The translations under genes were made by a program, and so were the position numbers. A stretch of 64,000 nucleotides of DNA from a virus (Duplodnaviria; Caudoviricetes). Positions 11,503 to 35,225 of this stretch are shown here, piece after piece. The DNA lies in the IMG/VR virus record IMGVR_UViG_3300027608_000010. One strand, given 5' to 3'. The notes below the pieces were generated by a model that ran no database searches, was not told the origin of the DNA, and was given only the letters and a program-made list of their open reading frames with translations. How positions within the stretch are numbered: the stretch's first letter is position 1; each line of letters opens with the position of its first letter.

Positions 11503-11872
11503 AGAAGAATTATTTGATCTTGAAGAAATGCTTATCAACTTTTCAAAAGATATTGAACCTAAATTACCCGTTCCTTTTGAATTTAGGTTGTATTATCGTG
11601 AAGATGGTAGTATAATAACGTATTCATGTGAAGAACTTGAGGGTAATTATGTTGTTATTGACGCCGAAACATTTGCTAGTGGCAGAATTGATGTTAGAGT
11701 TGTTAATGGAGAGATAGAAATAATTACTCCTATATTTTCAATTGACAAATTAGTTGAAGCTACAGAAGGAACGGCTTGTGCAGTTGAAGATATTAACATC
11801 CCGGTTTCTAATGACCATGAAGGGGAAAGTACGAAATGGACAATGAAACACGATGAGTTCAAATTTAATTGA
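11492..11872 (+). CDS. Hypothetical acidic protein
   Basis: ORF track starts at TTG 11480; GGAGA RBS at 11482 favours ATG 11492. Confidence 0.55.
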   Translation: MENEEELFDLEEMLINFSKDIEPKLPVPFEFRLYYREDGSIITYSCEELEGNYVVIDAETFASGRIDVRVVNGEIEIITPIFSIDKLVEATEGTACAVEDINIPVSNDHEGESTKWTMKHDEFKFN

Positions 11873-12800: not shown

Positions 12801-12803
12801 ACA

Positions 12804-14216: not shown

Positions 14217-14644
14217 AATTTATAGCGCATCGCGGGAATTTATTAGGTCCTGATATTGAACATGAAAATACTACTAATTATATACAACATGCAATTAACA
14301 AAGGATATGATGTAGAAGTAGATGTATGGTATATAGATGGTAAACTTCTATTAGGGCATAATGCCCCCATGCATGATACTAATTTATCTTTTTTGCAACG
14401 CCCTGCAATATGGGCACATGCTAAAAATTTACCAGCGTTAGAGTACTTACTAAATAACAATGTTCATTGTTTTTGGCATGAAAATGATGAACGGACGTTG
14501 ACTAGTCAACACTATATTTGGACATACCCTGATAAAGAAATAGTAGAAAATAGTGTTTTAGTCGTGTTAACCAAACATTTAAATTTAATAGATAATAATA
14601 TTTACGCAGTATGTGGGGATTACGTTGAAATTTGGAAATCCTAA
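14213..14644 (+). CDS. Short GDPD/PLC-like phosphodiesterase-fold protein
   Basis: 'FIAHRGN...EN...GYDVEVDVW...LGH' is the GDPD N-terminal motif. Confidence 0.65.
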   Translation: MKFIAHRGNLLGPDIEHENTTNYIQHAINKGYDVEVDVWYIDGKLLLGHNAPMHDTNLSFLQRPAIWAHAKNLPALEYLLNNNVHCFWHENDERTLTSQHYIWTYPDKEIVENSVLVVLTKHLNLIDNNIYAVCGDYVEIWKS

Positions 14645-15380
14645 GATTGCACTATGTTTTAGTGGTCAACCAAGAACCTGGCGAAAATGCTTAGAGTCTT
14701 GGAAATTGCACAATGTATTTACCGATAATGTAGATGTATTTTGTCATATTTGGGATTTTAATACAGTGCCAAACTGCGTTGCTGTTGGTAAAGATATAAA
14801 AAATCAGATATTACCTCAGGACGAAATTAATGAGTTACTTGCAATACTTAAGCCAAAAAAATATTTGATAGAACCAGTGAGAACTTTTACACCTATCAAA
14901 GAATCTCAACCTATTACTTTTTCTAATTTCTTAAGCCAATTTTATGGCATTATGGCAAGTGCTAGATTAAAACGAGAATATGAAATTGAAAATATGATGC
15001 AATATGATATTGTTATCCGAATGAGGTATGATGCTTTTTTTACTGATTCAATTTTCCCTAATCAACAAGTTCATCTACCGCAAGATAACACAATGTATTG
15101 CCATCATCTGGCATGGAATCATCTTTTAAATCGAGGTAGAATTGGTGATATATTTTGGTATGCTGACTCACAAACCTATGATATTATTGGTGATTATTAT
15201 TTAAATTTAAATTCAGTAGAACTAAAATTTGTTAAAGATTTCAATGAACATGAAATATTTTTTCATTATATTAAAAAAAATAATATTCAATTGAATATTA
15301 ATAATTGGGATATTAAATTGTTTCGTGAATCGTCAGAACTAGCTTTTTCTAAGGACAAAAATGGATTTGAGACCTGGTAA
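14613..15380 (+). CDS. Glycan-modifying / GT-like protein (CxSGQxR family)
   Basis: 'KIALCFSGQPR...FCHIW...YDIVIRMRYD...DIFWYADS'. Start uncertain (GTG 14613 or TTG 14625). Confidence 0.45.
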   Translation: MGITLKFGNPKIALCFSGQPRTWRKCLESWKLHNVFTDNVDVFCHIWDFNTVPNCVAVGKDIKNQILPQDEINELLAILKPKKYLIEPVRTFTPIKESQPITFSNFLSQFYGIMASARLKREYEIENMMQYDIVIRMRYDAFFTDSIFPNQQVHLPQDNTMYCHHLAWNHLLNRGRIGDIFWYADSQTYDIIGDYYLNLNSVELKFVKDFNEHEIFFHYIKKNNIQLNINNWDIKLFRESSELAFSKDKNGFETW

Positions 15381-16098
15381 AATTGCAATCTGTATTAGCG
15401 GGATGCTTAGGACAGGTATCAAAGCATATCCCTGTTTTAAACATTTTTTCAAAGATTTAAATGCAGATGTGTTCTTCCATACATGGGGTTTAGATAACGA
15501 GACATTAGATACTGTCAATAACTTATACGAACCAATAGGCTATATAAATCAACAACCATTCGAAACCATTTCAATGGGATCATTTGGTAATATGTTTTAC
15601 AGTATTATGATGGCTAATGAATTGAAAAAGAAATACGAAATAAAAAATAATTTTCGATATGATTTAGTTATAAAAACTAGGTTTGACTTAATTTTTCCTG
15701 ACACCAATATATTTGCTAATAACAAAATTAGCCCTAGAACCATTTATAGTTCAGGGGGAGATAATGGAATCAATCATACTGATTATGAACATCACGGGAT
15801 TGCTGATTTGATTTTTTGGGGTGATAGTGAATCTATGGATATTGCCACTAACACTTTTATGTATTATAAGCACACAGCATTGCCAAAGAATCAACTGTTG
15901 ATTTCAGGCATTCAATTTGATCCTAAAGCTATATTTTTAAGTCCAGGCAATCTGATTTATAATACATGTATCAACCAAAATATACACTTAGTTAAATTTG
16001 CATCATGGTTAGGGGAAGTACCTTGGCGCGATGACGTAGACCATTTAGATCCCTTTAGGGATTATGCTTTAATAAGAGAAAGATACCGGCAAATATGA
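15361..16098 (+). CDS. Glycan-modifying / GT-like protein, paralog of 14613
   Basis: 'KIAICISGMLR...FFHTW...YDLVIKTRFD...DLIFWGDS'. Confidence 0.45.
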   Translation: MDLRPGKIAICISGMLRTGIKAYPCFKHFFKDLNADVFFHTWGLDNETLDTVNNLYEPIGYINQQPFETISMGSFGNMFYSIMMANELKKKYEIKNNFRYDLVIKTRFDLIFPDTNIFANNKISPRTIYSSGGDNGINHTDYEHHGIADLIFWGDSESMDIATNTFMYYKHTALPKNQLLISGIQFDPKAIFLSPGNLIYNTCINQNIHLVKFASWLGEVPWRDDVDHLDPFRDYALIRERYRQI

Positions 16099-16895
16099 GA
16101 AAAATAGTAGTAGTAGGAGACAGCTGGACATATGGTAGCGAGATTAAAGATCCAGCGTTACCCAACACAATCAATGATTGGGATGCAGAAAATGATTCAT
16201 ACAGAATTCCTAAAATTTGGCCAACTAAGTTGGGAAACTTATTGGGGACTTCCGATGTAATTAATCTAAGTTATCCTGCAGCCAGTAATGACCGTAGTGT
16301 TAGACTTTTAGTTGGGTGGTTGACACAAGAATATCTAAGTAAAAACAAACCTACCGATGAATTGTTTGTTGTAGTAGGATTAACTAGTCCAGAAAGAAAA
16401 GATTTTTTCTATATAGATGAAAAGATAAGTAATTGGATTACTATATGGCCAATGTGGACACATGATTATATGCAAGAACCACTGCGTAGATTTGGACGAC
16501 TGTATGCCGAACATTTTTGGAATATAGAAGAATCAACACATAGATATCTGCAACAAATTTTCTATTTACAAACATTATTCAAACATTATAACATTAAATT
16601 CTTATTCTTTCAAGCATTTTATCAAAGACAAGACTTGCATATTAAACAATGGACAGATGATCCCTATTCCAGACACTACCAAAGTCAGCCTGACAAAATG
16701 ATATGGGATCTAATTGATGATAAAACGTTTATGCATAAGAACGATAAGATACATAGTTTTCATAACTATATTATAAAGAATGATCCTGACCCTGAAAAGA
16801 AATCAGTAATCCTAAATATGCATCCTAGTGAACTGGGACATACGATGTGGGCAGAGCATATGACAGACTATCTTAAGGAGAATAATTTATGGTAA
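16095..16895 (+). CDS. SGNH/GDSL hydrolase-like protein
   Basis: Block I 'VVGDSWTYG', block II 'ASND', C-terminal 'HPSELGH'. Confidence 0.65.
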   Translation: MRKIVVVGDSWTYGSEIKDPALPNTINDWDAENDSYRIPKIWPTKLGNLLGTSDVINLSYPAASNDRSVRLLVGWLTQEYLSKNKPTDELFVVVGLTSPERKDFFYIDEKISNWITIWPMWTHDYMQEPLRRFGRLYAEHFWNIEESTHRYLQQIFYLQTLFKHYNIKFLFFQAFYQRQDLHIKQWTDDPYSRHYQSQPDKMIWDLIDDKTFMHKNDKIHSFHNYIIKNDPDPEKKSVILNMHPSELGHTMWAEHMTDYLKENNLW

Positions 16896-17668
16896 CACAC
16901 ATTGCAACATGCGGTGATAGTTTTGGTGTAGGTACTGGATTACCTCAGGATAGATGTTTTGAAGATAGTTTTGGGGGAATTATTGCTAGTCATTTCAATC
17001 TACCTCAGAAAGTATATGCTCGGGCAGGTTGCTGTAATTTTGTCATTTATCTTCAAATTAAAAAGATAATAGAACAAATCGAAAAAGATGAAACGTATAA
17101 ACCTTTCGTATTGGTTACTACTACTTACCACGAAAGATTAATCTTTCCGTTAGATAACGGCACAATATATAAAAATCCAAACTTATCAGATGTTGAATAT
17201 AAATCATATAACCCCTATCATGATACAACACATGCTAAGGGCAGAGAATTGGCTTTTGAATCAAAAAAGAATACAAGATTAGTAGCTGAAACTATTTCAA
17301 ACATAAAACATTTTCAAGATGGAAAAGCCGATGGAATAGCAAGATTATTTGCAAAAGTAGATAAATCAAAACTTGAAGCAATCAAATCATACTATACGGA
17401 TATATTTGACACCGGTATTAAAAGTGAATATGACCAAGCATTAATTATTACAATGAGTTTTTTATTGAAAAAATTTAACATCCCCCATGTTATTATGGGT
17501 TATCCGTCATTAGAACTTACATATCTTGAAAATTTTATGCCAAATGATTGGGGATATTATACTAGATTATATCCAGACACTATGGGCAGTTCACATTGCA
17601 ATGAAGAAGGAAACAGGCTCGTAGGTGAAAATGTTATTAACTTTATTAAAGAACATCACTTGATATGA
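16889..17668 (+). CDS. SGNH/GDSL hydrolase-like protein
   Basis: 'TCGDSFGVG', 'GCCN', C-terminal 'HCNEEGN'. Confidence 0.55.
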   Translation: MVTHIATCGDSFGVGTGLPQDRCFEDSFGGIIASHFNLPQKVYARAGCCNFVIYLQIKKIIEQIEKDETYKPFVLVTTTYHERLIFPLDNGTIYKNPNLSDVEYKSYNPYHDTTHAKGRELAFESKKNTRLVAETISNIKHFQDGKADGIARLFAKVDKSKLEAIKSYYTDIFDTGIKSEYDQALIITMSFLLKKFNIPHVIMGYPSLELTYLENFMPNDWGYYTRLYPDTMGSSHCNEEGNRLVGENVINFIKEHHLI

Positions 17669-18384
17669 ATATATTGTTTGGATTATGTGGCGCGGGTAAA
17701 CGTTTTCGTGATGTAGGGTACACCATACCTAAATACATCATTGATGTTAATGGATCTCCCATGATTGAACATGCAGTAAAGACTTTAAAAATTTTGGGCG
17801 ATGTATTTTTTATTGTATTGAAAGAACACATGGATCAATACCCGCAAATTAAAGATATATTGTCACCTATGGGTACTATCATAGTTAGCGAATTTACTAC
17901 TCAAGGTGCCGCGCAAACATTGTTACTAGCCAAAGATTATATTGATTTAACTAAGCCCTTGATATCAGCTAACGGAGATCAATATTTAGATTGGGACTCT
18001 AGTTGCTTTAATTCAATGCTATGCGATTATCCTAATACTTCATATATTTTAACATACAAGGAAAATGATACTAAGTGCAGTTATATTAAAAAAAATGAAA
18101 AAGGTGATATTATTGAAGTTAGAGAGAAACAAGTTATAAGCAATGACGCAACTGTAGGAGTGTATCATTGGGCCAGTGCATCTGATTTTTTTAAGGACGC
18201 AGAAACAATGATTGCAGCAGATTATAGAGAGAACGGGGAGTATTATGTTGCGCCAGTATACAATTATTCAATAAAGCGTGGCTTGCAAGTTAAAAATTAC
18301 GAATTGTCTGATAAAGAATTTTGGCCGATAGGTACACCAAATGATTTGGAAAACTTTTTAAAAGTGATACAGCCCAATGATTAA
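17665..18384 (+). CDS. Sugar-phosphate nucleotidyltransferase (NTP_transferase family)
   Basis: 'CGAGKRF...PKYII.VNGSPMI', 'TQGAA.T', 'ANGDQ', 'EYYVAPVYN', 'IGTPNDL'. Confidence 0.75.
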   Translation: MNILFGLCGAGKRFRDVGYTIPKYIIDVNGSPMIEHAVKTLKILGDVFFIVLKEHMDQYPQIKDILSPMGTIIVSEFTTQGAAQTLLLAKDYIDLTKPLISANGDQYLDWDSSCFNSMLCDYPNTSYILTYKENDTKCSYIKKNEKGDIIEVREKQVISNDATVGVYHWASASDFFKDAETMIAADYRENGEYYVAPVYNYSIKRGLQVKNYELSDKEFWPIGTPNDLENFLKVIQPND

Positions 18385-19114
18385 AAATATATTAATAGTT
18401 ACTTGGAATCAAGATTGGCATCAATGTTCTAATATGTTAATTCCTTCTATATCTAAATTTATCCCCGGAGCTAATATTAAAATAGTTGATACTACATTTC
18501 ATACACCCTCACCTATAATCGCCCCTAGCTTTAGTAATATAACATACGAAGTATTACCTGCAATACAATTATTAGAAACACTAGAACCTTGGAAAGGCGA
18601 CAATCATAATGAAGGTTGGATGTACCAACAGATGTGTAAATTAGCAGGATACAAATTATTTGATAGTGAATTTGTAGTATTAGATTCTGAATTAGTAATA
18701 CTTAGAAAATTTGATAAATGGCCTACATATTGTAGGCTAACAGCCAGTAATACTCATTTTAATAAATTTATAGAATATGCTAGTGCTAGATTGAATATTG
18801 ATTGCGAAGGTCATTGTTTTTTAGAACCGTGTGTTCCGTATATATTAGATCCTAAGATTTTAAAAGAAATAGTTTCAACATTTGGGTCATTTGCAGAATT
18901 ATATAAATGGTTTATCACACATTCGGAGCCTAGTGAATTTATACTTTACGATTTATTTAAATATAGAAAAGACTTGCAACAAGACACTAATAACCAAAAT
19001 ATATATGAAAGCCCGGCAATACAATTTATAATAGACAATAAACCGTATGTTTTGGATAGTAGATACGATTTTGCTTTGATTAACCGTAATGCCTATATGA
19101 ATTTTGGAAAATAG
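18377..19114 (+). CDS. Hypothetical GT-like protein
   Basis: 'GWMYQQMCKL...VVLDSE' motif and glyco-locus context. Confidence 0.4.
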   Translation: MIKNILIVTWNQDWHQCSNMLIPSISKFIPGANIKIVDTTFHTPSPIIAPSFSNITYEVLPAIQLLETLEPWKGDNHNEGWMYQQMCKLAGYKLFDSEFVVLDSELVILRKFDKWPTYCRLTASNTHFNKFIEYASARLNIDCEGHCFLEPCVPYILDPKILKEIVSTFGSFAELYKWFITHSEPSEFILYDLFKYRKDLQQDTNNQNIYESPAIQFIIDNKPYVLDSRYDFALINRNAYMNFGK

Positions 19115-19116
19115 AT

Positions 19117-19443
19117 ATGAAAATAGCACACATAGAACAATTCACAAAGGGTTGGTTTGTTGGTAACTTTGATCCTAGCTTGTTGAAAGCTGATTTTGAA
19201 GTAGGACTACATCAACACAAAGCCGGAGAATTCCACCAAGATCATTTTCATAAATTAGGTACAGAGATTAATGTTATGATAGAAGGTCACTTACTATTAA
19301 ACGGAAATGAGTTCGGCCCGGGTGAAATTTTTGTATTAGAGCCATACGAAATTAGTCAAGTAGAGTATCTAACAGATGTTAAATTAATCGTAGTTAGAGA
19401 TATTAGCGATCCTAATGACAAATATGAAGTAGAGATAAAATGA
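19117..19443 (+). CDS. Cupin-domain protein (RmlC-like)
   Basis: 108 aa, 'H..HFHKLGTEIN...EG' metal-binding cupin motif. Confidence 0.75.
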   Translation: MKIAHIEQFTKGWFVGNFDPSLLKADFEVGLHQHKAGEFHQDHFHKLGTEINVMIEGHLLLNGNEFGPGEIFVLEPYEISQVEYLTDVKLIVVRDISDPNDKYEVEIK

Positions 19444-20558
19444 ACATTTATATCAATGAGATACCCACAGACCATATCAAAGTAACATATCAGGTTACCT
19501 CTACTAAAAATCTATCTATTGCGGCAGAGGCAATTGCTATAGGACAGAGTATCGGCAACCCATCTGTACGAAATGAGTTTGAATCACCTGAATTAGTTAG
19601 TAATCATTCTGCTAAAATATTAGGAGATAAAAATGAATTGTCTAAAATAACTGATGGTGAAATAATTATTGGTTATCCGTTAGTAAATATTAATTGGGAT
19701 GAAGATGGTGTATCACAACTACTTTGTATGATTCAAGGTGGACAGCTTGACATAGACCATATAGTTAAGTGTAGAGTAACTGACATTGATATAACTAATT
19801 TGCCTATGCTTAAGCCAAAGTTTGGTCTTTCAGGTATAAGAGAACTAACTAAAACATATGATCGACCTTTATTAGGATGTATATTAAAACCTAAGACAGG
19901 ACTACGCCCTAAAGAGCTATCATTATTAGTTAAGGAAATGATTGCTGGCGGGGCTAACATTATTAAAGAAGATGAAATTTTAGGATCACCCTCATACTGC
20001 AATTTAGAATCACGCTTACCCTACATTAGAGATATTATACAAGATAAGAATGTAGTTTATCTTACTTGCATTAACAGCAATCCAGACAAACTTATAGAAA
20101 AGTCTAGTACTGTTAGGATGCTAGGAGTTAATGGTATACATATTAATATCTGGAGTGGTTTAGGTAGTTATGCCGCTGTTCGAAATAAAAATTATCCACT
20201 AGTCATGCATTACCAAAAGAGTGGTGATAAGATTTTAACCAATATACATAATCCATATGGTATCGATTGGATAGTTCTATGCAAGTTAGCAATCATTAGT
20301 GGTATCGATACTATACATGCCGGAATGTGGGGCGGATACTTAAGTGATGATCCTGTATACCTTAAAAATATTATGGACACATTAACTAGTCACAATGTAG
20401 TCCCTGCATTGAGTTGTGGAATGAATGCAACATTAATACCACAAGTTACCGCTAAGTTTGGTGTTGATTACTTAGCGAATGTAGGCGGGGCGTGTCATAC
20501 ACATCCTGATGGAATTAAGGCTGCTGTACGGGAATTACGAAATGCCATCGACAGATAA
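19440..20558 (+). CDS. RuBisCO-like protein (form IV RLP)
   Basis: 'RPLLGCILKPKTGL', 'GGANIIKEDE', 'HAG', 'PALSCG', 'VGGACHTHPDG'. Loop-6 Lys is replaced (GGYL) and the Glu60 position is Gln (GQSIG). Confidence 0.9.
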   Translation: MNIYINEIPTDHIKVTYQVTSTKNLSIAAEAIAIGQSIGNPSVRNEFESPELVSNHSAKILGDKNELSKITDGEIIIGYPLVNINWDEDGVSQLLCMIQGGQLDIDHIVKCRVTDIDITNLPMLKPKFGLSGIRELTKTYDRPLLGCILKPKTGLRPKELSLLVKEMIAGGANIIKEDEILGSPSYCNLESRLPYIRDIIQDKNVVYLTCINSNPDKLIEKSSTVRMLGVNGIHINIWSGLGSYAAVRNKNYPLVMHYQKSGDKILTNIHNPYGIDWIVLCKLAIISGIDTIHAGMWGGYLSDDPVYLKNIMDTLTSHNVVPALSCGMNATLIPQVTAKFGVDYLANVGGACHTHPDGIKAAVRELRNAIDR

Positions 20559-21495
20559 CATCACAATACTTAAAGGCGGTTCTTTAAATTCGACATGCCT
20601 ACATGAAAACTCTATGGGTAAGTTTGTTAGAAAAAAAATAGCTACAGATAAGAATAGAGAATATGGATATGTTCGATGGTATAGTCAGCTAAAGAAATTA
20701 CAACGTTATAATAGTATGTTTCCTGGATTTGTTCCAAAGGTCTTGGATGCAGGAGTTAATGATAATGAAGCATACTTTGATATTGAATATATTGATGGTA
20801 TAGATATTAAGACTTTGTTTAAGAATAATCTAATAGATGATGTAGAAAAGTTGAATCAATCATTATGGGAAGCATTTGACTTGATACATCATAGGTCATA
20901 TAGTCCACTGCGTAGTTCTCTTATGCTTTACTTTATGGAAGAAGTAGAACAGAAACTACATGATGCACTAGAGTTCCCAGAGTTCAGAGACTTTTACATG
21001 ATGGATGTATATGAGTACAGGGGTGAAACATTTAGGGGCATGATCGGACAGCACGATAAGTTCAAAAAACTATTCAATAGAGATATTACTAGTGAAGGCT
21101 ATGTCCACGGCAATCCTACACTTGAAAACATACTATACAATACTGATACAAACAAAATAACCTTTATTGATTTATATGAAGAAGGGATAGTTGATAGTAG
21201 ATATTCAGATTATAGTCAGGTGTTACAATGCAGTAATAGTCACTATGGATTGATAAATGATTCAATAGTAACAATTAATGATAATCAGATTATGTCCGAT
21301 TATATTATACCAGATAAATTAGCAGAGTTCAATTCGTTGTTTATAGAAAATATTGAAGACAACACATCGTTGGTAATGCTATTTGAGGCTACCCAATATT
21401 TTAGAATGTTACCGTTTAAGTGTCATAGTGGTAACATATCTCACGCTAAGTTTTTTTATGGGTATGGATGCTATCTAGTAAATAAATTACTATGA
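20542..21495 (+). CDS. APH/choline-kinase-like phosphotransferase-fold protein
   Basis: 'FVRKK', 'VHGNPTLENIL', 'FID'. ATG 20542 is in frame with ORF-track start 20509. Confidence 0.6.
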   Translation: MPSTDNITILKGGSLNSTCLHENSMGKFVRKKIATDKNREYGYVRWYSQLKKLQRYNSMFPGFVPKVLDAGVNDNEAYFDIEYIDGIDIKTLFKNNLIDDVEKLNQSLWEAFDLIHHRSYSPLRSSLMLYFMEEVEQKLHDALEFPEFRDFYMMDVYEYRGETFRGMIGQHDKFKKLFNRDITSEGYVHGNPTLENILYNTDTNKITFIDLYEEGIVDSRYSDYSQVLQCSNSHYGLINDSIVTINDNQIMSDYIIPDKLAEFNSLFIENIEDNTSLVMLFEATQYFRMLPFKCHSGNISHAKFFYGYGCYLVNKLL

Positions 21496-22583
21496 TATGT
21501 AACATAAAAACATCACTCCCGATTGAATTTGAAATCCGTAAAGCTGTCAACGTATTATCGTTATCCGAAATTACTAGTAAAAGAAAAATTGTTATAATTG
21601 ACAGAAATGTTTATGAGTTATATTCCGATCAACTATTTGATGACGTAGATTCGTTGTTATTTATAGACTCGTCCGAAGAAAACAAAGATTGGACAACTGC
21701 GGAAATGGTACTAACCTTCTTAGAAGAAAATAAAATATTACGTAGGTCAGAACCAGTAATAGCAATAGGTGGCGGAGTCTTATTAGACTTAGTAGGATTT
21801 TGCTGTAGCATATATCGTAGGGGTATTCCTTACATTCGTATACCCACGACATTACTAGCAATCGTTGACGCTAGTGTGGGAGCAAAAACAAGCGTAAATC
21901 ATTTTAATAGAAGAAATCGTTTGGGTAGTTTTTATCCACCACAACTAACATTGATTGACACTACGTTTATCAAAACACAATCTGATAGAGAAATATCTAA
22001 TGGCTTTGCAGAGATATTAAAATTAGCAATCGTGTTAGATAGTAAGTTGTTTGAATTAATAGAAACAGATTCAGATAAGTTACTACAGTGCAAATTTCAA
22101 GATACCGCACATTCAACTGAAATAATTGAACGGGCAATTGCAGGTATGACCAAAGAACTTAATGATAATTTGTGGGAGCAAGAATTAGAAAGACCAGTAG
22201 ATTTTGGTCATTCATTCAGTCCCCTAATTGAAATGAAGAACGTACCTAATCTACTTCACGGAGAAGCAGTTATACTAGATTGTTTATTAAGTTGCTGTAT
22301 ATCAACTGTTAGAAACCTTCTCTCAGCGGATGAGTTAACTAGAATATTTAATTTGACTAGAAAAATGAATCTACCTGTAACTCATACTGATTTTTTAAAT
22401 AGCACATTATTGTTAGAAGGCTTGTCTGATGTAATGAAGCACAGAAACGGAAATCAATACTTACCTATACCAACATCTATTGGACAGTGTAAAATCATCA
22501 ATGACCTAACACCTGCTGAATTAGAATCAGCAATACAACTAATGAGATTATATGAAAAAGACCATATTGATTACTGGCACTAG
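21492..22583 (+). CDS. Sedoheptulose-7-phosphate cyclase, EEVS-type (DHQS superfamily)
   Basis: 'GGGVLLD...YRRGIPY.RIPTT..AIVDASVG.K..VN...NRLG..YPP', 'NLWE..LERPVDFGHSFSP', 'LLHGEAV'. Confidence 0.8.
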   Translation: MICNIKTSLPIEFEIRKAVNVLSLSEITSKRKIVIIDRNVYELYSDQLFDDVDSLLFIDSSEENKDWTTAEMVLTFLEENKILRRSEPVIAIGGGVLLDLVGFCCSIYRRGIPYIRIPTTLLAIVDASVGAKTSVNHFNRRNRLGSFYPPQLTLIDTTFIKTQSDREISNGFAEILKLAIVLDSKLFELIETDSDKLLQCKFQDTAHSTEIIERAIAGMTKELNDNLWEQELERPVDFGHSFSPLIEMKNVPNLLHGEAVILDCLLSCCISTVRNLLSADELTRIFNLTRKMNLPVTHTDFLNSTLLLEGLSDVMKHRNGNQYLPIPTSIGQCKIINDLTPAELESAIQLMRLYEKDHIDYWH

Positions 22584-23217
22584 TAGTGGTCTAGGTTTAG
22601 CTCTGGCAAAACACTATAGCAAGAATCACAATGTTATTGGATTAAGTAGAACCAATGTAGAAATGCCTAATTATACTCATCATATTTGTGATATTAGTAA
22701 CTTTGATAACGTATCTAAAACATTTTATTCCATCGGTGATAGTAAAATTGATTTACTGATTAATAATGCAGGGGTATTTGATATGGACAAGTTTACTCAA
22801 ACATCTATCCATACTATTGACCGTGTTATTAATACTAACCTGACAGGTGCCATGTATGTAACCAGATCAGCATTAGAGTCAATGCCAGATCATAGTAAAA
22901 TAGTCTTTATCAATAGTGTAGCAGGATTAGAAGAATTAGAGAATCAAAGTATATATTGTGCTAGTAAGTATGGTCTAACTGCATTTGCTGGAATACTTGG
23001 TAAAGAACTAAGAGACAGACATATCAAAGTCTCTAGCATACACCCCGGTGGGATTAATACCCCATTATGGGATAATACCCCATACCCGTTAGGAGATGCT
23101 ACTAATGCAATGGATCCAAATTCTATAATAGAAATTATCGACCTAATTGTAAACAGTAAATATGATATTGATTACAAAACTGTCAAAATGTTTCCGTCTA
23201 TTGAATGGCATAACTGA
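22552..23217 (+). CDS. Short-chain dehydrogenase/reductase (SDR)
   Basis: 'TGTSSGLG', 'NNAG', catalytic 'YCASK'. Confidence 0.9.
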   Translation: MKKTILITGTSSGLGLALAKHYSKNHNVIGLSRTNVEMPNYTHHICDISNFDNVSKTFYSIGDSKIDLLINNAGVFDMDKFTQTSIHTIDRVINTNLTGAMYVTRSALESMPDHSKIVFINSVAGLEELENQSIYCASKYGLTAFAGILGKELRDRHIKVSSIHPGGINTPLWDNTPYPLGDATNAMDPNSIIEIIDLIVNSKYDIDYKTVKMFPSIEWHN

Positions 23218-23227
23218 AAGATAAACT

Positions 23228-23344
23228 ATGAGAAACTTATTTCAAACACTATATTATAATACAATTGGAAAATTAGTTAGAGAATACAAGTATAGAAAAC
23301 GATTAAAAGAGTTACGTAAACGAGATCCATTTATCTACAAATGA
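23228..23344 (+). CDS. Small basic 38-aa protein (not in ORF track)
   Basis: MRNLFQTLYYNTIGKLVREYKYRKRLKELRKRDPFIYK*; its stop overlaps the ATG of the carbamoyltransferase (ATGA). Confidence 0.6.
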   Translation: MRNLFQTLYYNTIGKLVREYKYRKRLKELRKRDPFIYK

Positions 23345-24864
23345 ATATACTAGGAATCAGTGCCGGCTTTCATGACGCTGCCATCTCAGTTGTTAACACC
23401 CAAGGTGATATACTGTTTGCCGGCCACAGCGAACGCTACAGCAAGATAAAAAACGATGCACACATCAGCGCAGGCTTGATTGAAGAAATCTTCGGATTTG
23501 ATATTGATACCATTGCCTACTATGAACGACCCTGGGCCAAACAACTGCGTAGGCTTTACAGTGGCGAAGGTGTGCAATGGGGAGCCCTGACTGTAGAGCA
23601 ATGCTTACAAAGAGAACTCGGCGATCATCTAAAAATTTCCAGAGAACAAAACATCACGGATCCTCTGCATCCTGCTACAAATCTAAGAACCAGATCCTTC
23701 AATCACCATCTTAGTCATGCAGCCGGTGGATTTCAAACAAGTCCGTATGATCGTGCTACAGTTGTTGTGATTGATGCCATAGGTGAGTGGGATACGATAT
23801 CGATCTGGGGAGCCGAGTATGACAAGAGAGGCCGAGCACAGTATAAGAGATTGTGGACACAGCGCTATCCTCACAGCCTAGGTTTGTTTTATAGTGCAAT
23901 TACTAAGCGTGTGGGCCTACACCCATTAGACGAAGAATACATTACTATGGGCATGGCTGCTTATGGTGATGACCATTACCATGATCTTATGGAGGCAGTA
24001 TTGATCAGCGATGCAGACTCCATAGAATTCAAACAAAACTTGCACATAGGCGTTAGTGATAAATTCATGGACGGACTGGATCACATGGATATCGCTGCCA
24101 GTGCTCAACGGTTGTTACAACGACTAATAGGTAATGTCATGCGTAGAGCCAGGGATTTTAAGTGGTCAACCAATCTTGTGTATCAGGGTGGTGTTGCACT
24201 CAACTGTCTGGCCAATAGACAACTAGGAAGATTTTTTGAAAATATTTGGATTATGCCTTGCCCCGGTGATGCTGGCAGTAGTCTTGGCGCTGCTGCTCTT
24301 GCTCATGGTGGCAGGATTAATTGGACTACTGCTTTCTTGGGTCATGCTATACCCGGTAACTATCCCGTTAATGATGCTCTTAATCATCTCATTACTAATA
24401 GTATTGTTGGTGTAGCAAGTGGGCGTGCAGAATTTGGCCCAAGAGCATTGGGAAATAGAAGCCTACTTGCAGACCCAAGAGGAAAAGAAATAAAGGACCA
24501 AGTAAATGCAATCAAACGCAGACAAAAGTTTCGACCCTTTGCCCCTGTTATACTGGCTGAACTGGCTGATGACTATTTTGATATCAAGCCCGGCTGGCAT
24601 ACTCACAGTTATATGCAGTCAGTCGCTAGTTGCCGCGATCCTAATCTTTACCCTGCTATATGTCATGTTGATGGCACCAGTAGAGTACAAACGGTGGCAA
24701 AGGATGGATCAGGTATAAGACAGTTGTTAGAAGCCTGGTATGCACAAACAGGTTGCCCAATGTTATTGAACACTAGTCTTAACATACGCGGTGAACCCAT
24801 GGTAAATGATAGAACTGATGCTGATAGATTTCAGAATTTATACAATGTACAGGTCTTTTCGTGA
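23341..24864 (+). CDS. O-carbamoyltransferase (NodU/CmcH family)
   Basis: 'ILGIS..FHDAA', 'HHLSHAA', 'VIDAIGE', 'GGVALN', 'EFGPRALGNRSLLADPR', 'RPFAP', 'LLNTSLN'. Confidence 0.92.
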   Translation: MNILGISAGFHDAAISVVNTQGDILFAGHSERYSKIKNDAHISAGLIEEIFGFDIDTIAYYERPWAKQLRRLYSGEGVQWGALTVEQCLQRELGDHLKISREQNITDPLHPATNLRTRSFNHHLSHAAGGFQTSPYDRATVVVIDAIGEWDTISIWGAEYDKRGRAQYKRLWTQRYPHSLGLFYSAITKRVGLHPLDEEYITMGMAAYGDDHYHDLMEAVLISDADSIEFKQNLHIGVSDKFMDGLDHMDIAASAQRLLQRLIGNVMRRARDFKWSTNLVYQGGVALNCLANRQLGRFFENIWIMPCPGDAGSSLGAAALAHGGRINWTTAFLGHAIPGNYPVNDALNHLITNSIVGVASGRAEFGPRALGNRSLLADPRGKEIKDQVNAIKRRQKFRPFAPVILAELADDYFDIKPGWHTHSYMQSVASCRDPNLYPAICHVDGTSRVQTVAKDGSGIRQLLEAWYAQTGCPMLLNTSLNIRGEPMVNDRTDADRFQNLYNVQVFS

Positions 24865-27389
24865 TAGATATAGCGCATAGAAAAAAACTTTGGGATCAAG
24901 GATATTGGGAAATACCTGAAGGGTTAGATATAACTAACTTTGACTTCTCATGGAGACCAGAATCACATGATAGACCTTATATACATCAGTTTGGTACCCA
25001 GCATCAAAAGACAGGTGGACCAAGATTTGTAATTCCTGAAAATGAGGGTATCAAATATCAAAATTATCAACATGCAATAAGATTGCCTACTCCTGATATC
25101 AGATGTTGGCGACCATTGGTATCAAACATAGATTTTGATTATAGCTGGCACCCAGATGATACAGAACCTCCGTTCATTTATGTATTTGGTAACCAATGGC
25201 ATGACTCAGTTGAAATGCCGACTATACAATATAAAGTTTCAGGTGCAACTGAAAAGAAGTATGTTAATACAATAAAAGCAAAATTATTACCTGATAAAAC
25301 TAATTGGATCATACCTGATGATATAGAGGATAACTTTGACTATAGCTGGGTTCCTAGCCCCAAAGAACCATCTTTCATTTGGGAATTTGGAACACAATGG
25401 CAATCAACCGGTGGACCGAGTTATGTTGCACACGGCGCAACTTATACAAAATACTCTAAAGAATTGAATGCTACTAAGAAAAGTAATAATGAAGATAGAT
25501 GCTGGAGACCATTATTTCCCAATATAGACTTTGACTATAGTTGGCACCCCGATAAAAATGATCCGCCATACATATATGTGTTTGGCAATCAATGGTATGA
25601 TAGTTTAACAATGCCAACATTGTTATATAGGGTGAAAGGTGCAACTGAAAAGAAATATATGACTGACATAAAGGTCACGCTAACTCCTAATAAATCTTTG
25701 TGGTCTATACCAGATGACATAGAAGATGATTTTGATTATAGTTGGCTACCACACCCTGATGAACCGGCATATATATGGCAGTTCGGCACACAATGGCAGA
25801 AGAACGGTGGACCAAAGTATACTGCAATCAATGCAACTGTAGTTAAACATTCTGATTTGTTTAAAGCAACCAAAAAGAATATTAAAGAAAATCGTTTATA
25901 CAGACCATTAGTGTCAAATATTGAATTTGACTATAGCTGGCACCCGGATGAAGATGAACCACCATACATATATGTATTCGGCAATCAATGGTATGATAGT
26001 TTAAAAATGCCGACATTGGTATACCGAGTTAAAAGAGCTACTGAGAAGAAATATATGACTGACATAAAGGTCACGCTAACTCCTAATAAATCTTTGTGGT
26101 CTATACCAGATGACATAGAAGATGATTTTGATTATAGTTGGCTACCAGACCCCATAGAGCCACCATTTATTTGGCAGTTCGGCACACAATGGCAGAGGAA
26201 CGGTGGACCAAAGTATAATGCACTAGGAGCAAACATAATTAAACATTCTGATTTGTTCAAGGCAACTAAAAAATCTAATATTCGTAATTGGCGTTTTATT
26301 GAATCTATTAATAAAGAAACATTTGACTTTAGTTGGCACCCAGATGAAACAGAAGAAAACTTTAACCACATTGTTGGTACTAAGTTTCATACACCTGAGA
26401 TAATGCCTGCAATTATGTATCGTGGACACAATGATGCAAGAACTAACAAATATACTACAGAGATATGTGCTGATTTGACGATAGATAAGATTGTATATGA
26501 GGATAGCATATTTGATGCATGTATGGAACATAAATTCTCTACTGCTTATGCACATTTTGTAAAGAATACTAATAGCAACTACACACATGATTTGATTAAG
26601 GCTGATAATATCAGCGTACATTTATTTCCAAGCGAGGCGATTATTCCTAAGTCAGCAGTTACATTCTTCTATGATAAGATTACTGACTATGACCATGTTA
26701 TTGAACATGAATTTGAAGAAACAGTTGAGCCACTAGATGTTATATTCTTTAGTAACGGTGAAGCATGTGCTGATGACAATTATAATCATTTATTGTCACT
26801 TAATTTACCTAATAGAATTGTGCGTATTGACAGAGTGAAAGGTCGTGTTGCAAGTCAACATGCGGCAGCAAATGCTAGTAATACCCCCTGGTACTTCTTG
26901 GTAAATGCTAAGTTAAAAGTAAGAGATGACTTTGACTTCAATTGGCAACCAAACATATACAAATCACGTAGACACTATATATTCAGGGCAACTAATCCTG
27001 TAAATGGATTAGTGTATGGTCACCAAGCTATTGTCGCAAACAACAAGAAACTTACTTTGAACACTGTAGTTCGTGGGTTAGACTTTACAATGGACAGTGC
27101 AACAGAAGTAGTTGACATTAACTCCGGAGTAGCAATGTACAATACTAGTGCGTGGGATACTTGGAGAACAGCATTTAGAGAAATGATTAAACTATGTTGC
27201 AACACAGACCAAGATTCAATTGACAGAGGCGCAGCCTGGTTGAATAAGGGTTACGGAGACTTTGGTGAATACAGCAAGTTGGGTGCAAAAGATGCAGTTG
27301 ATTATTATAACAGTGTTGATGGTAATATGGAAAAACTTATGCTAAGTTATGATTGGGAATGGTTGTATCAGTATTACCAAAATAGTTGA
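24861..27389 (+). CDS. Repeat protein (132-aa units) fused to C-terminal GT-like domain
   Basis: Repeated 'FDYSWHPD..EPPYIYVFGNQW...FDYSW.P...IWQFGTQW'. The C-terminus resembles ORF 11853. Confidence 0.65.
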   Translation: MIDIAHRKKLWDQGYWEIPEGLDITNFDFSWRPESHDRPYIHQFGTQHQKTGGPRFVIPENEGIKYQNYQHAIRLPTPDIRCWRPLVSNIDFDYSWHPDDTEPPFIYVFGNQWHDSVEMPTIQYKVSGATEKKYVNTIKAKLLPDKTNWIIPDDIEDNFDYSWVPSPKEPSFIWEFGTQWQSTGGPSYVAHGATYTKYSKELNATKKSNNEDRCWRPLFPNIDFDYSWHPDKNDPPYIYVFGNQWYDSLTMPTLLYRVKGATEKKYMTDIKVTLTPNKSLWSIPDDIEDDFDYSWLPHPDEPAYIWQFGTQWQKNGGPKYTAINATVVKHSDLFKATKKNIKENRLYRPLVSNIEFDYSWHPDEDEPPYIYVFGNQWYDSLKMPTLVYRVKRATEKKYMTDIKVTLTPNKSLWSIPDDIEDDFDYSWLPDPIEPPFIWQFGTQWQRNGGPKYNALGANIIKHSDLFKATKKSNIRNWRFIESINKETFDFSWHPDETEENFNHIVGTKFHTPEIMPAIMYRGHNDARTNKYTTEICADLTIDKIVYEDSIFDACMEHKFSTAYAHFVKNTNSNYTHDLIKADNISVHLFPSEAIIPKSAVTFFYDKITDYDHVIEHEFEETVEPLDVIFFSNGEACADDNYNHLLSLNLPNRIVRIDRVKGRVASQHAAANASNTPWYFLVNAKLKVRDDFDFNWQPNIYKSRRHYIFRATNPVNGLVYGHQAIVANNKKLTLNTVVRGLDFTMDSATEVVDINSGVAMYNTSAWDTWRTAFREMIKLCCNTDQDSIDRGAAWLNKGYGDFGEYSKLGAKDAVDYYNSVDGNMEKLMLSYDWEWLYQYYQNS
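25104..26291 (+). repeat. Three in-frame 396-bp (132-aa) tandem repeat units
   Basis: Equivalent codons at 25104, 25500 and 25896. 25650-25751 is identical to 26046-26147. Confidence 0.85.
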
Positions 27390-28832: not shown

Positions 28833-28934
28833 ATGTTTGAAAATTGGCATTGGGTTTATATGTGGGGCATCTTAGTTATAGTCAACTATATGTTCTGGAT
28901 AGTAAAAAATCTTTTTGACAGTGTGAAAGAGTAA
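28833..28934 (+). CDS. Small 33-aa membrane peptide (not in ORF track)
   Basis: MFENWHWVYMWGILVIVNYMFWIVKNLFDSVKE*, with one hydrophobic helix. Confidence 0.45.
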   Translation: MFENWHWVYMWGILVIVNYMFWIVKNLFDSVKE

Positions 28935-29218
28935 GAACAGCGTAAACCTGCTGAGGAAACACTGGCGACACGGGAGTTCAATTCTCCCCACCTCCACCAA
29001 AAGCACATTCGGTATGCACATAGCATACAGAGACATTAGAAACATGATTGTGCTTTTGATGGGGGTGACATGGGATCGACCGACAGGATAGTACAAAGAT
29101 TAGGCGCTCATCAGAGTAGATGTTAAAACTAAACAAAAGTAACCGCAAACGACTCACAGTTCGCATTAGCAGCCTAAACACTGCTTAGGGTAAGACATAC
29201 CTCGTAACAGAAAATCAG
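28935..29218 (+). ncRNA. ssrA: Circularly permuted (two-piece) tmRNA: acceptor piece ~28935-28999, intervening segment 29000-29060, coding piece 29061-~29218
   Basis: T-arm GGGAG-TTCAATT-CTCCC and CACCTCC-A-CCA (to 28999) lie upstream of the 5' strand GGGGGTG (29061). They pair 7/7 with G3.U70. Tag frame 29145-29177 = ANDSQFALAA*. Outer ends are approximate. Confidence 0.92.
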
Positions 29219-29241
29219 AAAAGGCTCTTCGGAGCCTTTTT
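29219..29241 (+). terminator. Rho-independent terminator after tmRNA
   Basis: AAAAGGCTC-TTCG-GAGCCTTTTT. Confidence 0.85.
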
Positions 29242-29357
29242 CTCTAAGTGTTTACACTTAGTAAGAACAATGAATTTCACTATGTTATTTTTGATTTTTC
29301 CGTGTATAATAGTGATACATACTATGACAGTATGTCAAACTTAACCAGGAGAAAACT

Positions 29358-29429
29358 ATGTGGACAAAACCAACAGCATCTGATATGCGTTTCGGTTTCG
29401 AAATCACGATGTATATTGCCAACCGCTGA
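29358..29429 (+). CDS. pqqA: PQQ precursor peptide PqqA (23 aa; not in ORF track)
   Basis: [23 protein letters not shown] has the PqqA E-x-x-x-Y core (EITMY) and W-x-x-P leader. AGGAGA RBS at 29347, TATAAT at 29305, own terminator. Confidence 0.92.
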
Positions 29430-29446
29430 TATACATTGAAATCAAG

Positions 29447-29472
29447 AAAAGGGCACTAGTTGCCCTTTTTTC
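29447..29472 (+). terminator. Rho-independent terminator after pqqA
   Basis: AAAAGGGCA-CTAGT-TGCCCTTTTTTT. Confidence 0.8.
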
Positions 29473-30632: not shown

Positions 30633-30717
30633 TTGTAATATTACTGTCACACAATTCCTTCTAAATATTAGACTACATAGAAAATTACCCAGGCTAAGAT
30701 TTTAAATAAATAATTGC

Positions 30718-30746
30718 TTGACATTTGTATATTTTAAGTATATAAT
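30718..30746 (+). promoter_or_regulatory. Consensus sigma70 promoter
   Basis: TTGACA(30718)-17 nt-TATAAT(30741). Confidence 0.85.
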
Positions 30747-30783: not shown

Positions 30784-31347
30784 ATGAAATTTACAAAACT
30801 AGCGGTTGCATTTGCAACATTATTGATTGCAGGTTCAGCAGTAGCGGGTGGCTATGCATCATTAGAATATTCTGATGAAACTAATCGTGCAACAGATGCC
30901 ACAAACATCAAAGAAGCAATTGTAATCGGCAACAAAGTTGGCGACACAGACTACAGCCTTAAAATGGAAAACAGCCAAACATCGTTCGGTAGTGGTTCTA
31001 TTACACAAGGTCTAGAAGTTCGTGTAAGACAATCTTTTGGTGCCAAGGGTGCTATCCGTCCTTATTTGGGTGTTCGTTTAGGTGAAAAGGTATCTAGTTC
31101 AACACACTTCAGTCACTATGCTGTTGATGCAGGAGTTAAAATTCCTCTTGGCTCAGGTTTTACTGGTGATGTAGGCGCACGTTATCGTGATGCATTTGAT
31201 ACATCAAACAACTACACTACGCAACGTGCCCATGTTGCAGTTGGTTATGACTTAACTAAACAAGACGCAGTTGCAGTTCGCTGGAGCCGTACCTGGGGTG
31301 ATGAAGAAAAAGACGCAGTACGTTTACAGTACACACGTAGTTTCTAA
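30784..31347 (+). CDS. Outer-membrane beta-barrel protein
   Basis: Cleavable signal peptide (..SAVA), alternating amphipathic strands, and C-terminal 'LQYTRSF' aromatic beta-signal. Confidence 0.75.
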   Translation: MKFTKLAVAFATLLIAGSAVAGGYASLEYSDETNRATDATNIKEAIVIGNKVGDTDYSLKMENSQTSFGSGSITQGLEVRVRQSFGAKGAIRPYLGVRLGEKVSSSTHFSHYAVDAGVKIPLGSGFTGDVGARYRDAFDTSNNYTTQRAHVAVGYDLTKQDAVAVRWSRTWGDEEKDAVRLQYTRSF

Positions 31348-32536: not shown

Positions 32537-33640
32537 ATGGCATCTCATGTAAGTGACAATCACACTATCACTAGTGTGCAAACCCGTAAAGCAATTCTAA
32601 GTGCTTTCAAAACTAAACGTCCCGTTTTCTTGTGGGGCCCTCCCGGTATCGGTAAGTCTGATGTAGTTCAGGAAATTGCTACTGAATTAGAAGGTCATGT
32701 TATTGACTTGCGTATGGCGCAAATGGAACCCACTGACATTCGCGGTATTCCCTTCTACAATAAAGATATCAACAAGATGGATTGGGCTCACCCAGTTGAT
32801 TTGCCTGATGAAGAATTTGCAAAACAATTCCCTATCGTTGTATTGTTCTTAGATGAAATGAACAGTGCATCACCCTCTGTACAAGCCGCAGGCTATCAGT
32901 TGATTCTGAATCGCCGAGTTGGTAAATATAAACTTCCCGATAACGTTGCTATCGTAGCGGCAGGTAATCGTGATAGCGACAAGGGTGTTACATATCGCAT
33001 GCCAATGCCCCTTGCTAATCGTTTCATTCACTTAGAAATGCGCCCTGACTTTAATTCATGGCAGACATGGGCTGTGAAAAACAACATTCACAAAGACGTT
33101 GTTGGTTACTTGTCATTCGCAAAACAAGATATGTATGACTTTGATGCTAAATCGTCAAGCCGTGCATTCGCAACACCTCGTAGTTGGTGTTTCGTTAGTG
33201 ACTTGTTGAAAGATGAGGACAACATGGATACTGACACACAATTCAATTTGATTGCAGGCGCTGTCGGTGAAGGTCTTGCTGTTAAGTTTACAGCACACCG
33301 CAAAATCTCAGGTAAAATGCCTGAACCCTCTGACATTCTTTCAGGTAAAGTGAAAGACTTGTCTGTAAAAGAAATTAGTGCTATGTATGCATTGACTGTT
33401 GGTATGTGCTATGAATTGAAAGATGCAGTAGAACAGAAAAAGGTCAAACCAAAAGAGTTCCACGAAATGTCACAGAATTTCTTTGACTACATGATGAACA
33501 ATTTTGAAACTGAATTGGTTGTGATGGGTGCAAAGATTGCATTGAAAACATATGAACTGCCCATCGAACCTAGTCAGTTGAAAAACTTCGATGAGTTCCA
33601 CAAGAAGTACGGCAAGTACATTGTAGAAGCCGGTAACTAA
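32537..33640 (+). CDS. MoxR-like AAA+ ATPase
   Basis: Walker A 'GPPGIGKS', Walker B 'LFLDEMN', 'AAGN', 'ANRF', 'TPRSW'. Confidence 0.88.
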   Translation: MASHVSDNHTITSVQTRKAILSAFKTKRPVFLWGPPGIGKSDVVQEIATELEGHVIDLRMAQMEPTDIRGIPFYNKDINKMDWAHPVDLPDEEFAKQFPIVVLFLDEMNSASPSVQAAGYQLILNRRVGKYKLPDNVAIVAAGNRDSDKGVTYRMPMPLANRFIHLEMRPDFNSWQTWAVKNNIHKDVVGYLSFAKQDMYDFDAKSSSRAFATPRSWCFVSDLLKDEDNMDTDTQFNLIAGAVGEGLAVKFTAHRKISGKMPEPSDILSGKVKDLSVKEISAMYALTVGMCYELKDAVEQKKVKPKEFHEMSQNFFDYMMNNFETELVVMGAKIALKTYELPIEPSQLKNFDEFHKKYGKYIVEAGN

Positions 33641-33688
33641 GTTTACGTCAACATAAAGTTGACTCCCTCGGAACCGAAAGGTTCCTTT

Positions 33689-33726
33689 AAGGGTGAGGAT
33701 AGTGTGAATATTCTCACCCTTTTTTT
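33689..33726 (+). terminator. Rho-independent terminator
   Basis: AAGGGTGAGGAT...ATTCTCACCCTT followed by a T-run. Confidence 0.8.
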
Positions 33727-33740
33727 CTAAAGGATTTTAT

Positions 33741-33893
33741 ATGTCAGGTAAGAAATATTTTTATGCATTGGGTCAAAGTGCCCGTGCCCGTGGAATTGGT
33801 AAATTAACCGCTGAGAACTTTTACTGTATTGAATCAGCGGATGACTATGCCCGAATCGCATTTGACAAAGGTTTTAGAGGCCTACGTGCTTGA
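33741..33893 (+). CDS. Small 50-aa protein (not in ORF track)
   Basis: MSGKKYFYALGQSARARGIGKLTAENFYCIESADDYARIAFDKGFRGLRA*, AAGGA RBS. Confidence 0.55.
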   Translation: MSGKKYFYALGQSARARGIGKLTAENFYCIESADDYARIAFDKGFRGLRA

Positions 33894-33918
33894 CAATAAA
33901 TACGGTAGGCTATATAAT
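33890..33918 (+). promoter_or_regulatory. Consensus sigma70 promoter with embedded ATAAATA
   Basis: TTGACA(33890)-17 nt-TATAAT(33913). Confidence 0.85.
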
Positions 33919-33947
33919 ACTAGTATTAACTGATAAAGGAACATGCA

Positions 33948-35225
33948 ATGAGTGAAGTAATTGGCAAACGCAAAAAGAATCGTAGTGATAAATTTGATAA
34001 ACTTATCGGACCCACTGACACTAAGATTGATAATCTGGCCCGTGAACGATTAGTCGGCGCACGTATTGGTCTATTGTTGCGTCATAGTTTCTTTGGTAAT
34101 CTTGCTACTCGCATGAAGTTAGTCAATGCTGATGAGTGGTGTGCTACAGCGGCAACAGATGGCTTAAAATTCTATTACAATAGCCGTTTTATTATGATGT
34201 TGAAGCCTAAAGAAGTTGAATTCTTAGTAGGTCATGAAGTGTTACACGTTGTATATGATCACATGGGTCGCCGCAATGAGCGTGATCCGCAAATCTGGAA
34301 CATTGCTGATGACTATGCAGTTAATGCAGACTTAAAACGACATAATGTAGGTCAATTCATTACTACTGTACCTTGCTTATACGAAACAAAATATGATGGT
34401 AAGCCGGCAGAGGAAATTTATGATGACCTGATGAAGAATGTTCAGAAAATTAACATTGACCAATTGATTGATATGTTGCTTGACGATCATATGGATGATG
34501 GCAATGAAGAAGGTGATGGTGACGGACCTGAAGGCAACGGTGACAAGCCCGGACGCCCTCGCATGACACAAGAAGAAAAAGATCGGGCCCGAGCAGAAAT
34601 GAAACAAGCAATCATTGCCGCGGCTCAAGGTGCTGAGGCAGGATCACTACCTAAAGGTGTTGAACGTCTTATCAAAGATGTTACTGAACCTCAGATGCCT
34701 TGGCGTGAACTGATTCAAACTAACTTGACTAGTGCAATTCGTACTGACTACTCTTGGATGCGAGCCAATCGTAAAGGTTGGCACATGGATGCCATCATGC
34801 CCGGTACTACACCCGGTGAAGAGATTGATGTTGTTATTTCACTTGATATGTCAGGTAGTATCAGCAACAAACAAGCACAAGCATTCTTAGGTGAGATCGG
34901 TGGAATGATGGATACTTTTGATGGTTACAAGGTACACATATTTTGTTTCGATACTGATACATACAATCCACAAGACTTTGATAGTGAGAACATGGACAGT
35001 ATTGAACAATACGAACCTCAAGGTGGCGGTGGTACTGACTTTGATTGTATCTTTGATTACTTGAAAGAAAATGCTATTGAACCTAAACGTTTGATTGTAT
35101 TCACTGATGGATATCCTTTTGGTTCTTGGGGTGACCCTGACTATTGTGATACTACTTGGATCATTCACGGTGACAAGAACCCTAGTCCCCCATTCGGTCA
35201 ATTTGCTATTTACGAGGAAAAATAA
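33948..35225 (+). CDS. Metallopeptidase-like + VWA domain protein (DUF2201-type)
   Basis: 'TAATDG', 'GHEVLHV' HExxH, MIDAS 'DMSGSIS', 'GGGGTDF', 'FTDG'. Confidence 0.85.
   Translation: MSEVIGKRKKNRSDKFDKLIGPTDTKIDNLARERLVGARIGLLLRHSFFGNLATRMKLVNADEWCATAATDGLKFYYNSRFIMMLKPKEVEFLVGHEVLHVVYDHMGRRNERDPQIWNIADDYAVNADLKRHNVGQFITTVPCLYETKYDGKPAEEIYDDLMKNVQKINIDQLIDMLLDDHMDDGNEEGDGDGPEGNGDKPGRPRMTQEEKDRARAEMKQAIIAAAQGAEAGSLPKGVERLIKDVTEPQMPWRELIQTNLTSAIRTDYSWMRANRKGWHMDAIMPGTTPGEEIDVVISLDMSGSISNKQAQAFLGEIGGMMDTFDGYKVHIFCFDTDTYNPQDFDSENMDSIEQYEPQGGGGTDFDCIFDYLKENAIEPKRLIVFTDGYPFGSWGDPDYCDTTWIIHGDKNPSPPFGQFAIYEEK

Follow-up and report, generated by a model that had tools for sequence, protein, structure and literature searches.

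Why a phage should carry a gene for PqqA, the peptide precursor of PQQ, apart from the enzymes that convert this peptide, is the question raised by a short open reading frame in the window analysed here (the whole stretch of 64,000 nucleotides from a virus recorded in IMG/VR). The answer that we consider probable is a functional phage pqqA, an auxiliary gene by which PqqBCDE of the host would be provided with precursor; we infer its expression, processing and benefit from the sequence. The locus comprises the following features:

28901–29243, + strand: two-piece (permuted) beta-type tmRNA (RF01850, 112 bits, gathering score 84; RF04321, 89 bits)
29305–29310, + strand: –10-like box TATAAT, part of TATAATAG, no convincing –35
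29317–29335, + strand: 7-bp inverted repeat ACATACT-N5-AGTATGT, predicted 5′-terminal hairpin of the pqqA mRNA
29347–29352, + strand: ribosome-binding site AGGAGA, 5 nt upstream of the ATG
29358–29429, + strand: pqqA, 23 codons plus stop, with Glu15/Tyr19 as ExxxY pair and a WxxP leader
29409–29436, + strand: predicted hairpin ATGTATAT/ATATACAT covering the last codons and the stop codon
29447–29475, + strand: intrinsic terminator with a 9-bp GC-containing stem, a 5-nt loop and a T-run

The original prediction had proposed a PqqA peptide gene and had asked for an HMM check, which was run on the peptide of the window and gave matches over the full model length to PF08042 (40.2 bits, cut-off 21.1, E = 3e-10) as well as to TIGR02107 (40.4 bits, cut-off 20, E = 2e-10). 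Both curated PqqA models are therefore exceeded about twofold, and by their standard 29358–29429 is a genuine PqqA gene, as had been proposed. With 23 residues the peptide lies inside the PqqA range (about 20–30 residues), and E15-I-T-M-Y19 can be read in it directly, with the correct Glu-X3-Tyr spacing that is invariant among the cellular copies compared. In the viral set, this spacing was imposed by the search pattern, which left W2 and P5 free; both occur without exception (121 of 121 viral copies among the matches listed). The N-terminal W-x-x-P leader of PqqA is the part recognised by PqqD. According to its C-terminal 15 residues, by which the subtypes are defined, the peptide of the window belongs to the IANR subtype.

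All elements of the original prediction, i.e., the ORF, AGGAGA, TATAAT, the inverted repeat and the terminator, were found where it had placed them. From the –10 box to the terminator the transcript folds with –41.4 kcal/mol (z = –3.66 vs. shuffles), and the predicted fold consists of a 5′ hairpin, a stop-codon hairpin and the terminator. Here, the ACATACT/AGTATGT hairpin appears in the MFE and centroid folds alike; the 7-bp repeat taken alone is only mildly improbable. The terminator hairpin is formed by AAAAGGGCA/TGCCCTTTT (29447–29469) and is followed by the T-run. Similar AAGGAGAAA sites precede pqqA in two related contigs (L036 and L120), and a terminator-like hairpin within 80 nt downstream was detected at 57 of 118 viral pqqA loci among the matches listed, vs. 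none of 118 control windows. In the window, pqqA is flanked by two terminators and features its own ribosome-binding site. The proposal of a stand-alone transcription unit is supported: ribosome-binding site, terminator and TATAAT are present, but no promoter was called at 29305–29310 in the scan, and this site has no acceptable –35 hexamer, so that transcription could need a phage factor or read-through from upstream. The window contains nine copies of the motif TATAATAG, each on the + strand, and besides the pqqA copy three lie just upstream of genes; one of these (30741) is part of a perfect TTGACA-17-TATAAT promoter (about 30715–30746) ahead of a beta-barrel gene. That TATAATAG serves the phage as a common promoter motif is a suggestive idea, although its count is not significant (9 found, 5.8 expected).

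The genome that carries this locus is that of a phage. In the window, which has a GC content of 36% and nearly all long ORFs on the + strand, the ORF at 46452–47999 gave matches to the large terminase in jumbo phages of the PA5oct and GAP32 types, a RecA/UvsX-type recombinase is encoded at 52624–53688 and a helicase at 57751–59208. Terminase, UvsX-like recombinase, helicase and one-strand gene order place pqqA on a bona fide phage genome, and the window belongs to a jumbo phage. No match was obtained by megablast vs. GenBank phages, and an exact copy of the 72-nt gene turned up neither in IMG/VR nor in JGI metagenome contigs. The terminase of the window shares 57% identity with its counterpart in an IMG/VR record of 356 kb, the completeness of which is rated at 96%. 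The full genome is probably larger than 300 kb, of which 64 kb are seen here.

The claim that no pqqBCDE is present in the window was confirmed: tblastn with PqqB, C, D, and E of a bacterial pqq operon, taken from bacterial contigs recorded as ‘Acinetobacter phage MD-2021a’, found none of them in the window, and the only radical SAM gene of the window (12804–14216) was rejected as PqqE because it matches NF033640 (338 bits) and not TIGR02109. The pqqA of the window is thus an orphan copy outside a canonical pqqABCDE operon. A match to pqqB, pqqC, pqqD or pqqE was found at 0 of 127 viral or phage loci (the window included, among the matches listed) vs. 103 of 120 cellular loci, the latter being carriers of the peptide subtype of the window. 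Furthermore, no PQQ-dependent dehydrogenase was detected among the window ORFs scanned.

What could such an orphan contribute? PqqE together with PqqD cross-links Glu and Tyr of PqqA, and one peptide is consumed per PQQ (cited in PMC7678222 and PMC9851590). Methylophilaceae possess 3–12 pqqA copies and a single pqqBCDE, so that in cells with a high PQQ demand pqqA is the only gene multiplied (PMC4109929), and orphan copies are strongly expressed at the peak of PQQ synthesis (PMC9851590). Since each PQQ uses one peptide, an extra supply would maintain or raise PQQ. In the mechanism that we propose, a short structured mRNA featuring the 5′ hairpin, a strong ribosome-binding site, the 23-codon ORF and the terminator would be made, and the phage would provide the peptide alone, in which PqqD and PqqE of the host would cross-link Glu15 to Tyr19. 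Host proteases of the PqqF/TldD type as well as PqqB and PqqC would then complete PQQ. The phage-driven peptide could in this way keep or raise PQQ while host transcription declines, and PQQ would feed periplasmic PQQ-dependent alcohol, methanol or sugar dehydrogenases and thereby provide energy for a large phage. The short ORF, the stabilising hairpins and the strong ribosome-binding site would suit a consumable needed at a high level, which speaks for the auxiliary-gene reading. The host would have to possess pqqBCDE, as is suggested by bacteria carrying the same subtype (103 of the 120 loci). Altogether, precursor supply to the host pathway appears to be the most economical reading, in agreement with the interpretation of viral PqqA in PMC7678222.

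An alternative option would be that genes for the remaining steps, or for another peptide-modifying enzyme, lie in the phage genome outside the window, and that the peptide is the substrate of a phage enzyme. The window covers just 64 kb of a genome of probably more than 300 kb, the gene at 12804–14216 encodes a twitch-domain radical SAM protein, and radical SAM genes in methylotroph viruses were noted by Coutinho et al. (PMC7678222). However, the 96%-complete 356-kb relative features pqqA, and in searches for PqqB, PqqC and PqqE none was found in it (best PqqE match 22 bits, cut-off 381), with the PqqC search detecting the gene in two control bacteria that served as positive control. Moreover, the gene of the NF033640 protein is clustered with genes for a sugar cyclase, an SDR and a carbamoyltransferase, a setting that hints at chemistry on small molecules and less at chemistry on peptides, and in none of the viral loci among the matches listed do the flanks contain pqqBCDE. 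We therefore regard a phage-encoded pathway as improbable.

A further question is whether the gene is used at all, for which its distribution among viruses is informative. A tblastn search of GenBank phages returned 12 records, two of which are bacterial contigs. The 10 records kept comprise Venkman, Melnitz (four records), MEP301, MEP401, MEP402, P19250A, and one uncultured spring virus, and every cultured Methylophilales/Methylophilaceae phage returned by this search carries an orphan pqqA. The entries named ‘Acinetobacter phage MD-2021a’ (e.g., CAKLQF020000010.1) were discarded as a phage pqqA, as they represent bacterial chromosome contigs (ppk, pqqABCDE, dipeptidase). In 10 of the 10 GenBank phage records examined, pqqA is unannotated or lies under a spurious antisense ORF, in line with the expectation that annotation misses the gene. 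For example, a spurious antisense ‘hypothetical protein’ covers pqqA in Melnitz (MZ577097.1, 2995–3069) and in the spring virus MW202481. The Melnitz gene ends 11 nt before tRNA-Leu.

IMG/VR was scanned by a degenerate DNA pattern of the peptide core, and cellular genomes were likewise searched by a degenerate pattern. This approach revealed pqqA in at least 120 IMG/VR contigs, with an intact ORF of 23–25 codons in every match listed. The closest viral copies among the matches listed differ from that of the window by 13 nt and one residue (L067) and by 17 nt and one residue (L034), and one viral peptide sequence is encoded by 18 distinct DNA sequences among these matches. As judged from these comparisons of sequences, viral pqqA is under purifying selection. 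In a 148-kb IMG/VR contig (L256), pqqA, a homologue of the 95-aa ORF, the MoxR-like AAA gene (74% identity to the window) and the DUF2201/VWA gene (55%) follow in the same order. The gene order common to this contig and the window indicates that pqqA has been passed on within this group of phages. Two other relatives (UvsX 74–77% identical) have pqqA at another site beside recombination genes, where it likewise features a ribosome-binding site and a terminator of its own.

These data also bear on the possibility that pqqA is a neutral passenger, i.e., an unused scrap of host DNA captured, for instance, together with the tmRNA gene. Captured host fragments do occur in phage genomes, and pqqA adjoins a host-like tmRNA gene. 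A passenger would, however, be difficult to reconcile with an ORF that is intact in all of the at least 120 viral contigs and that has accumulated many synonymous changes but few replacements, with the own ribosome-binding site and terminator, the recurrence of terminators downstream of viral copies and the position kept in a related large phage. In addition, the composition has moved towards that of the phage (GC3 of 0.46 in the window vs. a cellular mean of 0.60), and in Thauera tmRNA and pqqA are located on different contigs. We consider this explanation unlikely.

The two-piece tmRNA, 115 bases upstream of the start of pqqA, was called by Rfam but not by ARAGORN; it encodes the tag ANDSQFALAA and has its own terminator at 29219–29240. 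The same kind of combination was observed in a 166-kb IMG/VR phage contig (L257), which carries an IANR-type pqqA, a two-piece beta tmRNA (14164–14583, 128 bits, tag ANDEVFALAA) and a tRNA array. Among five named bacteria, only Thauera (G003), which also has PqqC, possesses a two-piece beta tmRNA; none was found in Polaromonas, Albidiferax, Hydrogenophaga or Limnobacter. Sampling of the order revealed it above cut-off in 4 of 151 genomes, a tally that took in one unpublished genome with a sub-threshold match only. The tmRNA of a phage need not correspond to the lineage of its host (PMC9004378). A joint capture of tmRNA and pqqA was considered as well and is not supported, because the two genes reside on different contigs in Thauera.

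Finally, the peptide could be a decoy that ties up host PqqD/PqqE or another partner without more PQQ being made, or the transcript could be a regulatory RNA, and the unusual structure of the transcript and the possible inhibition by short peptides would be compatible with such roles, but the leader and both residues of the cross-link show full conservation, which fits a substrate and not an inhibitor, and synonymous changes accumulate freely, so that the protein sequence and not the RNA sequence appears to be under selection, leaving both variants very improbable.

As to the host, the peptide subtype offers a first indication. Among the named records in a pattern scan of representative genomes, the IANR subtype was found in Comamonadaceae (Rhodoferax, Albidiferax, Polaromonas, Limnohabitans, Hydrogenophaga, and Acidovorax) and also in Limnobacter and Rhodocyclaceae (Thauera), and PqqA of a Rhodoferax MAG is identical to the peptide of the window across the last 20 residues. 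The subtype of Methylophilaceae phages differs (...EVTMYVMNK). When 401 genomes of the order were sampled, a single IANR copy was present in each of three genomes (3.0–4.8 Mb) and 3–6 VMNK copies in each of four (1.3–2.6 Mb), and the two subtypes never shared a genome; the multi-copy VMNK genomes of this sample fit the 3–12 pqqA copies published for Methylophilaceae (PMC4109929).

The host signals partly disagree, as the nearest cellular peptide is that of Rhodoferax-type Comamonadaceae and the beta tmRNA is found in Thauera instead. Taken together, the IANR subtype and the beta tmRNA point to a betaproteobacterial host outside the Methylophilaceae, perhaps of the Rhodocyclaceae. In terms of the GTDB taxonomy, peptide subtype and tmRNA suggest that the host is probably a betaproteobacterium of the Burkholderiales, likeliest of the Rhodocyclaceae or Comamonadaceae. 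In PA5oct-like phages, the AT content far exceeds that of the Pseudomonas hosts, and given this precedent the low GC content of the phage is no obstacle to such hosts. More speculative, and in our view rather doubtful at present, is the broader idea that phage pqqA extends beyond phages of obligate methylotrophs with subtypes tracking PqqD/PqqE of the host, thereby serving as a lineage barcode, and that IANR and tmRNA mark a clade of large Rhodocyclaceae/Comamonadaceae phages with a consumables module. If true, this module would consist of tRNAs, tmRNA and PqqA and would keep a failing host productive.

The novelty of a phage pqqA, as implied by the original prediction, did not withstand comparison with the literature, since viral PqqA was already proposed as auxiliary metabolic gene in methylotroph phages of Lake Baikal, namely in population VP_266 (Coutinho et al., 2020, Microbiome 8:163, PMC7678222). 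VP_266 and the window share a viral PqqA gene that is unaccompanied by the other genes of the pathway and can be read as support of PQQ-dependent dehydrogenases. Unlike the window, with its IANR subtype and no PQQ-dependent dehydrogenase seen in the ORFs scanned, VP_266 was assigned to Methylophilaceae hosts and carries a methanol dehydrogenase; the window further differs in representing a jumbo phage and in having pqqA beside a two-piece tmRNA.

Venkman, Melnitz, MEP301, MEP401/402, and P19250A likewise carry a stand-alone pqqA of 23 codons, the peptides sharing 65–73% identity with that of the window. In Melnitz, the gene is also placed among small RNA genes, i.e., between tRNA-Arg and tRNA-Leu. 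The copies of Methylophilales phages are, however, of the ‘...EMRFGFEVTMYVMNK’ subtype and belong to small podo-, sipho- or T4-like phages of OM43/LD28 hosts. In the paper on Melnitz the gene is absent from the text, and PQQ is named only as medium supplement (PMC9004378).

On the cellular side, the chromosomal orphan pqqA copies of Methylophilaceae resemble the window in being extra precursor genes apart from a single pqqBCDE, some of them highly expressed (PMC9851590), and provide a precedent for raising the dosage of the precursor gene alone (PMC4109929); in contrast to the gene of the window, they are chromosomal and of the VMNK subtype. The operon-encoded PqqA of Comamonadaceae/Rhodocyclaceae (Rhodoferax) shares its last 20 residues with the phage peptide, whose N-terminus (MWTK...) is one residue shorter than that of Rhodoferax. 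The cellular gene is GC-rich and followed by pqqBCDE (at the 103 of 120 loci), whereas the phage copy has AT-shifted codons. The window stands out by its peptide subtype, which is not that of Methylophilaceae, by a conserved gene order within a jumbo phage and by the two-piece tmRNA gene next to pqqA. The window copy extends the viral supply of PQQ precursor from Methylophilaceae phages to a jumbo-phage lineage with a peptide matching that of other betaproteobacteria, and this suggests that the PQQ-dependent oxidations in the periplasm which phages manipulate are not limited to methanol oxidation in hosts of the OM43/LD28 type. As a conserved and selected viral gene of 72 bp is routinely missed by gene callers and in GenBank records, counts of viral metabolic genes are too low. 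With the idea itself already published, the value of the present locus is incremental: it can improve annotation, may serve as a marker of the host and provides a simple system for tests.

Apart from pqqA, the window contains further genes worth mentioning. The region around pqqA (27.5–31.5 kb) harbours small accessory genes, and the tmRNA-pqqA pair lies between a glycine-zipper 2TM lipoprotein gene (PF05433, 28428–28820, + strand) on one side and a gene for an outer-membrane beta-barrel protein (PF13505, below cut-off, 30784–31347, + strand) on the other. A MoxR-like AAA ATPase and a DUF2201 metallopeptidase/VWA protein are encoded as a pair at 32537–35225 (+ strand). At 1–6579 (+ strand), an ORF of more than 2,169 aa, open at the window start, gave no Pfam match.

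A long series of biosynthetic-looking genes extends over 9938–27389 (+ strand) and may make a modified sugar or cyclitol. Besides the twitch-domain radical SAM protein (12804–14216, NF033640), this series encodes a RuBisCO-like protein (19440–20558, PF00016, 113 bits, below all equivalog cut-offs), a 3-dehydroquinate-synthase-like sugar phosphate cyclase (21492–22583), an SDR (22552–23217) and a NodU-like carbamoyltransferase (23341–24864), as well as several ORFs of about 250 aa without family. The series ends with an 842-aa repeat protein (24861–27389) featuring the motif ...FDYSWHPD...PPYIYVFGNQW....
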